In this document: in pieces, positions 8,465 through 32,792 of the stretch
How positions within the stretch are numbered: the stretch's first letter is position 1
Layout: the number at the start of each line of letters is the position of its first letter
Assembly (NCBI GenBank): GCA_947629265.1
Contig: CANRCZ010000001.1
Coordinates: 37,344-101,343 of the forward strand
Source: an uncultured Bacilli bacterium
GTDB taxonomy: Bacteria; Bacillota_I; Bacilli_A; RF39; UBA660
DNA length: 64,000 nucleotides
Direction: 5' to 3'
Made by a program: the position numbers and the translations under genes
Notes under the pieces: model-generated
Database searches by the model: none
What the model was told of the DNA's origin: nothing
What the model saw: only the letters and a program-made list of their open reading frames with translations

Positions 8465-8550
8465 ACATTTATAATATCAACATAGAGAAGATAAATTATC
8501 TGAATATCAATCAAAATATGGTTAATAATAAAGTAGTAAAGGAGAATTAT

Positions 8551-11500
8551 ATGAAGAAGAAAGGTTTTACTTTAATTGAATTGTTAGCAGTAATCGTAAT
8601 ATTAGCAATCATAGCAATGATAGCAGTGCCAATAGTATTAAACTTAATTGAAAAATCTAGAAGAAATGCCTTTAAAGATAGTGTCTATGGCATTATGGAA
8701 GCAGCCGATCTATTTGTAGTATCAGAAAATTATAATACAAACGATGAAATAGAATTTGTCTGCAATGGAACATCTTGCTCTTTAGATGATGGTAGACAAC
8801 TATCATTTAAAGGAGATGTTCCTATAAGTGGAAGCATTCAAATAAAAGATAAAAATACTTTAGCATATTTTATAAAAAGTAATGAATATTGTGCTTTAGG
8901 TACAAAGGAAAGTTTAGATGTAAATAAAGATTGTACAGAACTAGATTATACGGGAGCTGACTTAGAATTAAAGTTAGTAAAAGCAACAACAAATAGTATA
9001 ATAGTATCATATAAAGCTACAGATGTTGAATCAGGAATATCTAGTGTAGAGGTTAAATTAAACAGTGATGTAAAAAAATTTACATATGATGATAAACCAT
9101 CTATTGTAACTAATGGTGGTACTGGAATATTATTTGATAAACTAGAAAACAATAAAGATTATACAGTAACTTTAACTGTAACAAATGGAAATAAAATAAC
9201 TAAAACTCAAGATTTAAAAGTATCAACTAAAGAAATGAAGAATCCTGATTTAATATCTGTAAACGATCCAACAGATGCTCAAGATGGATATTTTAAAACT
9301 CAAACTATACAAATAGATTTTGATACAGAAACTAAACCAGATTCAGCAAGATACTTTGTTAAAACTACTAAACAAGGTACAAGTAATATAGAGGTTACAA
9401 AGAAATGTGATACTAATGCTGATACAGATACACCAAATATCAATAGTTGTGAAACTATAGATAGTATAACTACTTTAGAAGAAAATGTATGGTATGAAAT
9501 ATCAGGTAACTTAGATGTAAAATACGATAGTACAGATAAAAATAAAGATAAAAATTTATATGCAATGACATATGATGGTACTAACTTTAGTGGAGTAGCA
9601 ACATATAATTTATCTATGATAGATGGAACTAAGCCAACATTAAAATTGGGTGAAATAATATCTAAAACAGATAAATTATCAATAGGATATACCGCAACTG
9701 ATGATGAGTCAGGAATAAAAACAAGAACATGTAATTATGGAACAGAAAGTGGAAAATATACTGAAACAGGTGTGGCATCTGAAACAAATTGTAGTATTAC
9801 AAAATTAAAACCATCAACAACATATTACTATAAAATATGTGTACAAGATAAAGTAGGAAATGAAGAGGTATGTCATGAGGGAAATACAATGACAAATGCC
9901 TTTGTAAATCCAGATCTACAGTCAACTATAAGTCCAGAAAAAGATGTTGATGGCTTTGTAAAAACACAAAGTATAACAGCAAAATTTAATAGTGAAAATA
10001 TGGATGAACCAAATCACTATATAAAATCAACAAGAGAGGGAACAGCAAGCGATAATGTAAAAGAAAGCTGTGGAGATGGTGAAAATCCAAGTAGTTGTTC
10101 AAGCATATCAGAAACAAAAACATTAAGTGCAAATACGTGGTATAAAGTAAATGGAGATACAATTACAGTAACATATGATAAAGCTAGTACAGAAACTAAA
10201 GATACTTTAACAGCCATAACATATGATGGAACTAATTATAGTGGAGTAGCAACATATACATTATCAAAGATAGATGCAACTAAACCATCATTTACAATGG
10301 ATAAATCAAAAATTACATCAACAACAAATAGTATAAAAATACCATATACAGCATCGGATACTGAAACAGGTGTAAAAGTAAGTTGTAAATATGGAACAAC
10401 TGATGGAAATTATGAAAATAGTGGAACATCAGTTGATAATACATGTACAATGTCAGGATTAACAGCAGGTACTAACTATTATTATCAAGTATGTGTTAGT
10501 GATGGTGTAGGAAACGAGGTACCATGTCAAACAGGAAATACATCAACAAATTCAATAACAGCACCAAGTATAACATTAACAACAAATACAACTGGAACTT
10601 TAACAGGTTACGCATTAAAACAAGTAGCAGCAGTAACATTTACAAATACTAATATAACCACCCCAACACATTATATAAAAACAACGAAAGCTGGAACAAG
10701 TAGTTCAAGTGTAACAGAAAGTTGTGGAAATGGAGATAAACCTGGAACATGTACAGGTATAACAAGTACAACAGCATTAGGAGCAAATACATGGTATAAA
10801 GTAAGTGGAAATACAGTATCAGTAACATATGACACACCAAGTACAGCTACTGGAACATTATCAGCCATAACCTATGATGGAACAAACTATAGTACAGTAG
10901 CAAATCAAGATATAAGTAAAATAGAACAACCAGCAACAGGAATAACATTAAATCAAACAAGTGCTACAATAAAAGTAGATGGAACAGTAACATTAACAGC
11001 AACGATACAACCAGCAAATGCAACAAATAAGAATGTAACATGGACAGCAGATAGTTCAGGTGTAGCATCAGTATCAAATGGAAAAGTAACAGGTCTAAAA
11101 GTAGGAACAGCTACGATAACAGCAAAGACAGCAAATAATCATAGTGTAACAGCAAGTATAAAAGTAGAAGCCAAAGGTGAATTATTATATGATAAAGTAT
11201 CTGTTGGAGATTACGTGGCTTATGATGCAGGTGTTTGGAATGAAACTGTAGAAAAAACGACATATAACTCATTTGGCGGATATACAAAAGGCAAAAGTAA
11301 AAATGAAACTGTAATATGTGACAATGATTCTATTTCAATGTATAAAGGTTGGAGAGTGTTGAAAAAAGATGCAGCAACTAAAAAAGTTACTATAATCCAT
11401 GCGGCAACACCTGAATGTTACTATCATGATTGGACAGATGACAGTGTAACTAACTTAAATACACGTGCAAATGAACAATATAAAAACTCATATGCCGATT

Positions 11501-11772
11501 CGGCTCATGCTATGACATATGATGAAATAAAGGAACTAGAAGCACTTGATCCTCATGGTGAATTACTATATTGTCAAGCAGGTTATTGGTTGGCAACTCG
11601 AAACACTGGATCTCTTGGTTACTTGTATAAAGCGAACGGTGCAGGCTCCGTCTCCAGCTACTATAGCGACTTGGACGGTTTCCGCCCAGTAATAGTTCTA
11701 AAATCTGATGTTATGACTACAGGTCGAGGTAAAGATCAAGTAGGAAATGAAAATGCTTGGATATTAGCATAA
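8551..11772 (+). CDS. modular type IV pilin-like surface protein: prepilin signal, FN3-like tandem repeats, Big_2 domain, C-terminal DGR-type CLec-like variable domain
   Basis: Class III signal MKKKGFTLIELLAV with Glu at +5. RBS AAGGAG precedes the 8551 ATG. Three ~220-aa tandem repeats and a Big_2-like segment (VTWTADSSGVASVSNGKVTGLKVGTATITAK). The last ~190 aa are homologous to the DGR target domain (GDYVAYDAG...GFRPVIVLKS). Confidence 0.75.
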   Translation: MKKKGFTLIELLAVIVILAIIAMIAVPIVLNLIEKSRRNAFKDSVYGIMEAADLFVVSENYNTNDEIEFVCNGTSCSLDDGRQLSFKGDVPISGSIQIKDKNTLAYFIKSNEYCALGTKESLDVNKDCTELDYTGADLELKLVKATTNSIIVSYKATDVESGISSVEVKLNSDVKKFTYDDKPSIVTNGGTGILFDKLENNKDYTVTLTVTNGNKITKTQDLKVSTKEMKNPDLISVNDPTDAQDGYFKTQTIQIDFDTETKPDSARYFVKTTKQGTSNIEVTKKCDTNADTDTPNINSCETIDSITTLEENVWYEISGNLDVKYDSTDKNKDKNLYAMTYDGTNFSGVATYNLSMIDGTKPTLKLGEIISKTDKLSIGYTATDDESGIKTRTCNYGTESGKYTETGVASETNCSITKLKPSTTYYYKICVQDKVGNEEVCHEGNTMTNAFVNPDLQSTISPEKDVDGFVKTQSITAKFNSENMDEPNHYIKSTREGTASDNVKESCGDGENPSSCSSISETKTLSANTWYKVNGDTITVTYDKASTETKDTLTAITYDGTNYSGVATYTLSKIDATKPSFTMDKSKITSTTNSIKIPYTASDTETGVKVSCKYGTTDGNYENSGTSVDNTCTMSGLTAGTNYYYQVCVSDGVGNEVPCQTGNTSTNSITAPSITLTTNTTGTLTGYALKQVAAVTFTNTNITTPTHYIKTTKAGTSSSSVTESCGNGDKPGTCTGITSTTALGANTWYKVSGNTVSVTYDTPSTATGTLSAITYDGTNYSTVANQDISKIEQPATGITLNQTSATIKVDGTVTLTATIQPANATNKNVTWTADSSGVASVSNGKVTGLKVGTATITAKTANNHSVTASIKVEAKGELLYDKVSVGDYVAYDAGVWNETVEKTTYNSFGGYTKGKSKNETVICDNDSISMYKGWRVLKKDAATKKVTIIHAATPECYYHDWTDDSVTNLNTRANEQYKNSYADSAHAMTYDEIKELEALDPHGELLYCQAGYWLATRNTGSLGYLYKANGAGSVSSYYSDLDGFRPVIVLKSDVMTTGRGKDQVGNENAWILA
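9241..10920 (+). repeat. about 660-bp tandem coding repeats (FN3-like modules) inside the pilin-like gene
   Basis: Protein repeats begin NPDLISVN..., NPDLQSTI... and a third partial copy. Shared motifs are TYDGTN(F/Y)SGVATY and YYY(K/Q)(I/V)CV. Confidence 0.6.
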
Positions 11773-31616: not shown

Positions 31617-31696
31617 TAATATAATTTTTTTTCATTTACAAATAACGTATAATATGTTAAAATTTAATTGTAAAATAAGGAAAGGAAAGATAAAAA

Positions 31697-32792
31697 ATGA
31701 AAGAAAAAATAAGGCTTGGGGGGGGGTTATTTACTAATAATTTTAATACTATTAGTGGTAACTAATGGTATAACATATGGTGTAACTAGCCTACAAAGTG
31801 AAAGTGTTAGCTACACTAGAAATGGCCAAACTAAAAGTGTGAAACAAGCACTAGATGATTTAATTGTTAAGGTTGATCAAAAGAGTGGTAACTTTAATAT
31901 TGAGTTAAAAGAAAGAAATCTAGCAGTAAATTTTACGGAGAACGTATCAACTTATAAAACAATTGTTGATAATGTATTAAGTAAAATGATAACTGCAATG
32001 GGTAGTGATGTTAGTACTGCAGAGTTAACAGCATTAAAAAGTGCAACGTTAACATGGACAAGTCAAAATAATGGTATTGCAACTGTGGTTAGCGGAACAA
32101 CAGTAAAAGGTGTTGCAGCAGGACAAACAAAAATAATAGGAACAGCACCTAGTGGACAACAGGTAATAGTACCAGTAAAAGTAATAAGTGCAGTATATTT
32201 AGCCCAAAAAGCAACAGTTGGAGATTACGTGGCGTATGATGCTGGAACATGGTCTTCAGCAGTAACAACTAAACCAACAGGTCAAGGAACTTTTGGAGGA
32301 AACGCAGCAAATAATAAAGGAAATAGTGTATCATCATGCTTAAGTAGTAGCTACTCTACCTCATTAAAAGGTTGGCGCGTTTTAAAAATTGAAGGTAATC
32401 AAGTCTACCTAGTCCATGCCGGTCAACCCGAATGTTACTATCATGGACAAGACCAGAGTGCTAGTATAACTAAATTAGATGCACGAGCAAAAGAATATAT
32501 GAATTCATATGCCCAATCAGCTCATGCTATTACTAAAGACGAGGTTGATGCTATTACCAATACTAGTGATACCTTACGGAAGACTGGAGATTATTATTGG
32601 TTGGCAACTCCATATAATGGCCTCAGCGGTGGCTACTTGTATTGCGTGCACCCGGATGGTAGCATAGCCAACTACTGCCGCAACAGCTCGGACGGTTTCC
32701 GACCTGTAATTGTTCTAAAATCTACAATCCTAACCACTGGACAAGGATCAGATGGTTTTGGACATAATGATGCTTGGTTAATAACAATTTAA
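31697..32792 (+). CDS. DGR-target family paralog. Frameshifted at a G9 tract, so phase-variable or OFF. Big_2-like middle domain plus CLec-like C-terminal domain.
   Basis: ATG at 31697 with RBS AAAGGAAAG reads MKEKIRLGGGLFTNNFNTISGN*. Removing one G gives MKEKIRLGGGYLLIILILLVVTNGITYGVTSLQSESVSYTRNGQTKSVKQALDDLI..., continuous with ORF 31716-32792. The 5' region is about 80 percent identical to 17440-17640. Confidence 0.72.
31718..31726 (+). repeat. G9 homopolymer tract in signal-peptide codons (candidate phase-variation switch)
   Basis: Nine consecutive G. The frame is restored by -1 G. Confidence 0.65.

Follow-up and report, generated by a model that had tools for sequence, protein, structure and literature searches.

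A single diversity-generating retroelement in a dispersed family of surface-protein genes of an uncultured Bacilli bacterium, with probable past targets among the template-unmatched paralogs

A 64,000-nt stretch (in the following, the window) of contig CANRCZ010000001.1 from an uncultured Bacilli bacterium (GCA_947629265.1) carries a diversity-generating retroelement (DGR) together with four paralogous genes, P1 to P4, which share the type of domain diversified by such elements. Only P2 matches the template repeat (TR) of the DGR. The explanation we favor, with reasonable though by no means full confidence, is that one chromosomal DGR resides in a dispersed gene family in which P1 and P4 are past targets of templates of their own, so that the family would reflect a turnover of TR-target pairings rather than an archive of silent genes.

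The DGR cassette and its target gene

The cassette lies on one strand in the order target (P2), MutS-domain-I-like accessory gene (MSL), avd, TR, a spacer of ~295 nt and reverse transcriptase (RT). Its elements, including the variable region (VR) and the longest listed open reading frame (ORF) of P2, are the following.

17410-17438, + strand: promoter-like site of P2, TTGAAA-17-TATAAT, near-consensus
17472-18546, + strand: P2, current DGR target gene, with promoter-like site, ribosome-binding site and ATG at 17472; longest listed ORF 17638-18546
18367-18467, + strand: VR of P2, encoding YWLATAFGSTYLYYVGTDGSIGSYYNSVYGFRPV; its 3' end is the GC-rich core GGTTTCCGCCCGGT
18564-18598, + strand: GC-rich hairpin, ~97 nt 3' of the VR end; DNA fold -10.5 kcal/mol, z = -2.3
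18617-19063, + strand: MSL, small accessory gene; Pfam MutS_I 4e-10
19041-19415, + strand: avd accessory gene; Pfam bAvd 7e-10, PHROG "Avd protein of DGR" 2e-19
19465-19565, + strand: TR, AAC-rich, 34 codons; reading in the VR frame NWLATANSSTNLYNVNTDGSINNNNNNVNGFRPV
19566-19860, + strand: TR-RT spacer, conserved in relatives (alignment with L023-L026)
19861-20754, + strand: DGR reverse transcriptase, 297 aa; Pfam RVT_1 2e-15, PHROG reverse transcriptase 4e-75

VR and TR are collinear at an offset of 1098 and differ at 15 positions, every one of them a TR adenine (15 of 34 A positions), while the remaining 67 positions are free of mismatches (0/67); the homology ends right after the common GGTTTCCGCCCGGT. 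This adenine-only pattern points to a rewriting of P2 from the TR, and, judged by it, the two repeats appear to be a textbook live pair: the RT would make errors at adenines when copying the TR, and the resulting copy would replace the last ~101 nt of the P2 domain. The RT itself, whose homologues were found at 65–74% identity, shows the motifs YQDD and IGSMTSQ in its translation, the latter being a mark of DGR RTs. All hallmarks of a DGR are consequently present, i.e., a DGR-type RT, an adenine-only TR/VR pair, Avd, and putative cis elements, namely a GC core at the VR 3' end and a downstream hairpin. A first-pass annotation of the window had already singled out 17472-18546 as the only gene matching the TR apart from A positions and the only one followed by a GC-rich hairpin, and both statements were confirmed; in P1, P3 and P4, the 3' end is formed by an AT-rich hairpin and a subsequent run of T. 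The 9-nt sequence TTTCCGCCC at 18562-18570, which comprises the 5' arm of the GC-rich hairpin and the two preceding bases, is a second occurrence of the core found at the 3' end of VR and TR.

MSL-type accessory genes define DGR architecture D (Wu et al., 2018, PMC5758913). The cassette described here shares the target-MSL-avd-TR-RT order on one strand with those of that architecture and differs from them in nothing essential, apart from a spacer with a partial duplication of its own 5' junction. Rfam yielded no RNA family in the DGR region, and a conserved motif of the spacer was not found in exact form in JGI metagenomes or IMG/VR.

Unmatched paralogs and their codon footprint

The four copies are dispersed over 24 kb with housekeeping genes between them. 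The three members other than P2 are:

8518-11772, + strand: P1, 1084 aa, type IV prepilin-like; C-terminal domain 11170-11769, VR-like segment 11584-11691
22951-23778, - strand: P3, 275 aa, short form; VR-like segment 23032-23130; no poly-G tract
31697-32792, + strand: P4, long form with the architecture of P2; VR-like segment 32595-32708

As proposed in the first-pass annotation, the four C-terminal domains (~195 aa) align end to end, with 54–61% identity to P2 and 64 invariant columns. The sequence blocks quoted there hold as a consensus of the alignment but are not invariant, e.g., P4 has GGNAANNKGN for GGYT.G.SKN, P3 reads GWRIL and ECYYF, and P1 reads HAATPECYYH. P2 and P4 consist of a signal anchor, an SVSYT..QALDDLI block, a middle part of ~100 aa with a Big_2-like portion and the C-terminal domain, and in P3 the signal anchor and the SVSYT block are joined to the C-terminal domain by a short linker. 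The N-terminal block, which had been described as common to all members, is thereby restricted to P2, P3 and P4, whereas P1 has the N-terminus of a type IV prepilin (Pfam N_methyl 31.7 bits against a cut-off of 21.2, residues 12–36), followed by three repeat modules of ~217 aa, Big_2 and the family C-terminal domain (Pfam N_methyl, Big_2 and fn3). The repeats of P1 are also visible at the DNA level (9555-10971 of the window) as three tandem units of ~651 nt with 62–81% identity, which encode fn3/Ig-like modules and form a stalk joining the pilin N-terminus to Big_2 and the variable-type domain.

Each of the four copies is equipped with a ribosome-binding site, a start codon and a terminator of its own, and with either a signal sequence or a prepilin leader. 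At the nucleotide level they are 58–69% identical, and the best common tract, 128 nt at 84% in the promoter-to-signal region of P2 and P4, falls short of the near-identical 5' regions claimed earlier. At identical residues outside the VR, codon identity amounts to 0.55–0.69, compared to 0.58 expected at saturation for the local codon usage. The paralogs are old duplicates, at or near synonymous saturation.

The VR-like segments of P1, P3 and P4 differ from the TR by indels, as noted before, and also in length, with 36, 33 and 38 codons, respectively, compared to 34 in the TR. Non-A mismatches amount to 19/68 in P1, 19/66 in P3 and 16/68 in P4, with 6, 7 and 12 gap columns. None of the three shows the collinear, indel-free and adenine-only relation of a cognate pair with the TR of the window. 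A partial homing of the present TR into the 3' part of P1 or P4 was considered as well and rejected, since non-A mismatches extend as far as the GC-rich 3' core and are also present within it.

DGR mutagenesis turns AAC codons into NNC codons. Codons ending in C are scarce in this genome, with a fraction of 0.16 in housekeeping genes and 0.05–0.13 in the family genes. As a footprint of rewriting, we therefore determined how frequent C-ending codons are in the YWLA..GFRPV segment and, for comparison, in the rest of the same domain:

P2 (live VR): 0.50 versus 0.08 in the rest of the domain, p = 4e-6
P1: 0.39 versus 0.07, p = 5e-5
P4: 0.45 versus 0.13, p = 4e-4
P3: 0.12 versus 0.05, not significant
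Eight distant homologues without a DGR gene detected in the surrounding DNA (L001-L007, L009; for L002, L003 and L009 this DNA covers <10 kb on one side): segment 0.00–0.12, no enrichment
L021 gene 2, close relative: segment 0.06
L022, close relative from the same sample as the window: segment 0.19
L008, with MSL and Avd next door: segment 0.27
L019, close relative: segment 0.47
L020, close relative: segment 0.50

In P1 and P4, the excess of C at the third codon position (C3) is 3.5- to 5.5-fold and confined to the VR-like segment. The distant homologues used as controls stem from a scan of genome contigs, which returned proteins of 31–48% identity, mostly encoded by single copies without a DGR and not to be taken as orthologues; since their segment is low in NNC codons, the excess appears to track DGR activity and not to be intrinsic to the loop. 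Moreover, with paralogs near synonymous saturation, an ancestral C3 excess should have decayed, as in P3. Because the NNC and GC footprint is confined to the VR-like segments, P1 and P4 were probably rewritten after the duplications by AAC-rich templates of their own, which differed in length from the present one. The three unmatched copies are not equivalent, as P3 lacks a significant footprint; its NNY fraction of 0.73, nearly all NNT, weakly suggests an old, decayed VR. The earlier proposal of past diversification, or of further TRs elsewhere, consequently fits P1 and P4 but finds no such footprint in P3.

Template turnover and competing explanations

Taken together, the favored scenario assumes one target-MSL-avd-TR-RT DGR inside a dispersed multigene family of surface-anchored proteins, whose C-terminal domain would be a DUF6273-like binding domain of the C-type-lectin type. 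P1 would be a giant modular type IV pilin, with P3 and P4 being membrane-anchored, and all three would be complete, anciently diverged genes and not silent donor cassettes. P1 and P4 would have been rewritten since the duplications by AAC-rich templates of 36 and 38 codons, compared to 34 in the present TR. These templates may have been lost, leaving orphaned targets that now drift, may lie outside the window, or may have disappeared when the assembly collapsed a repeat array. P3, in turn, would never have been a target or would have ceased to be one long ago.

Several observations weigh against this scenario. The footprint is compositional and rests on 34–38 codons per gene, and the enrichment of mismatches at TR adenines is modest in the unmatched copies (odds ratio 2–3.4). 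An adenine-tolerant scan of both strands of the 64-kb window revealed no other template for P1 or P4, and the spacer unit occurs once in the 64 kb, which cover both flanks of the RT. Furthermore, P1 and P4 lack the GC hairpin.

A possible, though clearly less likely, alternative is that P1 and P4 are active targets at present, served by perfect TRs elsewhere in the genome or in a collapsed TR array next to the RT. It overlaps with the favored scenario and differs solely in that the templates would still exist. In its favor, the footprint of both genes comes close in strength to that of the live VR, and DGRs with more than one TR are documented (PMC6642488). A related locus (L023; metagenome-assembled genome (MAG) GCA_947623815.1, contig CANQHO010000030.1), whose RT is 65% identical to that of the window, in fact has one RT surrounded by five or more distinct TR units: three tandem TR-plus-spacer units lie upstream of the RT (1-1114), where the contig begins inside a fourth, and two more lie downstream (2020-2640). 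The units measure ~310 bp each, and the five TRs differ in sequence, the three that were measured having 32–37 codons.

Such arrays are hard to assemble, and the single TR of the window is therefore to be taken with some caution. Four of four short-read contigs carrying related RTs break 200–280 nt upstream of the RT. In the window itself, the sequence GTAGCTCTCTA, which forms the 5' junction of the spacer, is present in two copies 57 nt apart (19572-19582 and 19629-19639), which flank a degenerate and incomplete duplicate (~57 nt) of the first part of the spacer; relatives have a single copy of this junction. The duplication could be the scar of a TR-array contraction, a plain duplication or an assembly artefact. 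On the other side, the presence of just one TR and one spacer unit, with both RT flanks included, speaks against current activity of P1 and P4, as do the missing GC hairpin and their GC-rich 3' cores, which differ from the VR/TR core at 1–2 positions.

It appears unlikely that the copies are passive relics, i.e., products of the duplication of one ancestral target that have diverged from the TR by drift, with no rewriting after duplication. This would agree with the non-A divergence of 24–29% and the indels found in all three copies, and for P3 also with the missing C3 excess combined with an NNY fraction composed mostly of NNT, as C-to-T decay would give. However, synonymous sites are near saturation and P1 and P4 nevertheless keep their C3 excess, and the footprint is found on segments of three different lengths (34, 36 and 38 codons).

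We regard it as very unlikely that the C-ending excess is unrelated to the DGR and caused by selection acting locally on the amino-acid composition, on mRNA structure or on the translation of the loop. The segment is indeed rich in Gly, Ser and Tyr, and the sample of 34–38 codons per gene is small, but C3 is 0.00–0.12 in ten members of similarly Gly/Ser/Tyr-rich composition (L001-L007, L009, L021 gene 2 and P3), and the excess tracks the one proven VR.

Least probable of all is the notion, raised in the first-pass annotation, of silent or archival cassettes recombining with the expressed, TR-matched gene, comparable to antigenic variation of the pilS, vls or MgPa type, as all copies are full genes with expression signals of their own, share no long identical tracts and are spread over 24 kb among housekeeping genes. 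The hallmarks of silent cassettes, i.e., donors without expression signals and long, nearly identical tracts shared with one expression site, were not found in the window, nor was evidence for the recombinational shuffling that had been suggested. Family-wide data are more favorable to exchange: besides the conserved N-terminal block shared by P2, P3 and P4, identities of the N-terminal block and of the C-terminal domain are uncorrelated across the family (r = 0.00, 1176 pairs), and one protein (P0049, from an ENA contig of 2203 bp) is identical to P3 at 59 of the 60 N-terminal residues and continues as the C-terminal part of L021 gene 1 (L021 122-994), with the crossover inside the conserved TITVKQALD.LINTS block. 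An exchange of modules at this block over evolutionary time and, in the case of P0049, a chimera of metagenome assembly may explain these observations equally well.

Binding domain, poly-G tracts and genomic setting

An AlphaFold2 model of the C-terminal domain, built from an alignment of 91 sequences, reached a predicted local distance difference test (pLDDT) score of 97.7. The PDB contains no sequence relatives of the domain, and a Foldseek search against it gave no significant match, with classical C-type lectins matching weakly at template modeling (TM) scores of 0.25–0.35. Among predicted viral structures, the best matches were phage DUF6273 proteins (TM 0.45–0.50, probability 1.0), with DUF1566 and C-type lectins ranking lower. 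DUF6273 is described as a DGR target domain of C-type-lectin fold whose C-terminal end contains the VR (PMC10743442, PMC11792537). In Pfam, P4 remained below the gathering score of DUF6273 (16.7 bits against 23.5) and P2 gave no match, while 8 of the 91 family members were hit at E < 0.01. The label of a DGR variable-domain fold consequently seems reasonable, with the family placed in a DUF6273 branch, a membership via distant similarity only. Of the C-type-lectin or DUF1566-like fold expected earlier, the C-type-lectin type appears likely from the literature on DUF6273, and DUF6273 is closer than DUF1566.

The DUF6273 targets with the best fold matches are the tentaclins of gut phages (PMC10743442) and targets of Faecalibacterium prophages (PMC11792537), with which the proteins described here also share the position of the VR at the C-terminal end of the domain and adjoining Ig-like domains (Big_2, fn3). 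In contrast to these phage proteins, those of the window are cellular, membrane-anchored or pilin-fused, and encoded on the chromosome without phage genes nearby, and their family lies below the Pfam gathering score; in tentaclins, moreover, the domain is N-terminal.

A search of a representative library (E ≤ 1e-3) placed the wider family in 278 clusters at 50% identity, comprising many architectures, including pilin-fused and very large multi-domain proteins, and no orthologue above about 60% identity was found in the database. Exact-protein look-ups for P3, the RT and the family proteins P0030 and P0004 gave no match in an index that does not hold long NCBI MAG contigs. P0030, reported on a contig of 115,783 bp, which is also the length of the contig that contains the window, is a fifth family member and lies outside the window. 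Another one, P0057, stems from the same sample as the window; its gene is directly preceded by a transposase pair (HTH_Tnp_2 and rve; L022 157-1499), and the protein lacks the LKGWRVL part of the domain and may be degenerate.

Of special interest are two poly-G tracts, G10 in P2 (17493-17502) and G9 in P4 (31718-31726), which are the only runs of at least seven G or C in the 64 kb. They are located seven codons after the ATG, in the order ribosome-binding site, ATG, MKEKIR(F/L) and G10 or G9, and in both genes the ATG is one base out of frame with the gene body, so that neither P2 nor P4 is an intact ORF as assembled. Substitutions past the tract are synonymous or conservative in the shifted frame, which identifies this frame as the one under selection. 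With at least eight bases in a 5' coding position that set the frame, the tracts have the homopolymer of a contingency locus. The loci L021 and L022 show the same ATG...CTT-G9-TTAT arrangement with the same frame offset; in total, the offset is identical in 4/4 genes (three with CTT-G9 and one with TTC-G10), and no length polymorphism was seen. A further contig (L018) matches the window at 100% identity, G10 included, but probably originates from the same sample and hence provides no independent confirmation.

The ~31 tract-type family proteins in the database are all called from internal TTG or GTG starts (MGGGYLL.., MVTNGITYG.. or MTSDGVSY..) and none from MKEKI.., although random tract lengths would put about a third in frame, and the representative-library search returned no sequences in the ON form. 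The tract genes may thus be contingency genes with a majority in the OFF state at every locus, or they may be expressed via programmed slippage. P4 is unlikely to start at the TTG at 31716, since a good ribosome-binding site serves the ATG, the K/R-rich start of the signal sequence lies in the ATG frame, and P2 lacks any in-frame start. Poly-G contingency genes of Campylobacter, Neisseria and Haemophilus resemble the genes described here in having G9–G10 early in surface-protein genes of an AT-rich genome, with the tract length setting the frame. Classical contingency loci, however, show a mixture of ON and OFF states, whereas here 0 of ~31 tract genes are called in the ON frame. Our literature search retrieved no paper linking DGR targets with homopolymeric phase variation, which is absence of evidence only. 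P2 and P4 are also the genes without a divergent regulator; regulators with two HTH_3 (XRE-type) domains lie divergently and immediately upstream of P1 (window 7879-8397, - strand) and P3 (23861-24343, + strand).

A more speculative and rather doubtful view would combine three layers of surface variation on one family. Changeable TR units would serve one RT, with paralogs gaining and losing hypermutation over time. The conserved out-of-frame tract at codon 8 would keep the target and its relatives untranslated by default, and expression would depend on slippage of DNA, RNA polymerase or the ribosome, so that new variants could be generated in a silent gene and tried out at a later time. Finally, N-terminal anchors and C-terminal binding domains would be swapped at the SVSYT..ALDDLI block.

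The window has a GC content of ~28% and looks chromosomal. Genes around the paralogs have housekeeping functions, e.g., AddAB-like helicase-nuclease genes, RNase III, a P-type ATPase and a tRNA methyltransferase. Directly 3' of the RT lies an AAA_21 (AbiEii-type) ATPase gene (window 20918-22069), and a weak AbiEi-like protein (27343-27897) and a RhuM-family protein (6397-7425) are encoded near the DGR; despite the housekeeping surroundings, the neighborhood has some flavor of a defence or mobile island. Six tRNA genes are clustered at 54737-55613. Related loci were found in MAGs of uncultured Bacilli or Bacillota, several of them apparently from the animal gut, and one relative is a closed chromosome of 1.31 Mb.

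Non-diversified paralogs of DGR targets are well documented (Schillinger et al., 2012, survey, PMC3521204). Cyanobacterial C-type-lectin paralogs, including all3226, show graded or remnant TR-VR homology, which was interpreted as a loss of diversification components after duplication (PMC7517822). The four paralogs with one TR match are hence a further example of a known phenomenon. As in multi-target DGRs with non-diversified paralogs, such as that of the Treponema denticola TvpA family, one RT and one TR are accompanied by a C-terminal VR, a domain of the C-type-lectin type and dispersed paralogs whose TR homology is graded or absent. The system described here differs in that the unmatched copies deviate from the TR in length, that two of them keep an undecayed NNC footprint, pointing to separate templates and not to one TR with several VRs, and that the host is represented by a Bacilli-like MAG of ~28% GC. 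What is added here is quantitative evidence for two unmatched copies as independent targets, the large TR array of a relative, and the poly-G gate.

Surveys of DGRs usually count a target only if a matching TR is present; in this context, the NNC footprint offers a way to find genes once rewritten from a template that is now missing. Where a genome is extremely AT-rich, the decay of this footprint also provides a rough clock, according to which the footprint is fresh in P1 and P4 and gone in P3. Together with the multi-TR array of the relative, the footprint suggests that gain and loss of TRs reassigns one RT among the members of an adhesin family. A poly-G gate on the live target, if true, would join two systems of hypervariation that have so far been studied apart, and would prompt one to ask if diversification continues in the OFF state of the gene.

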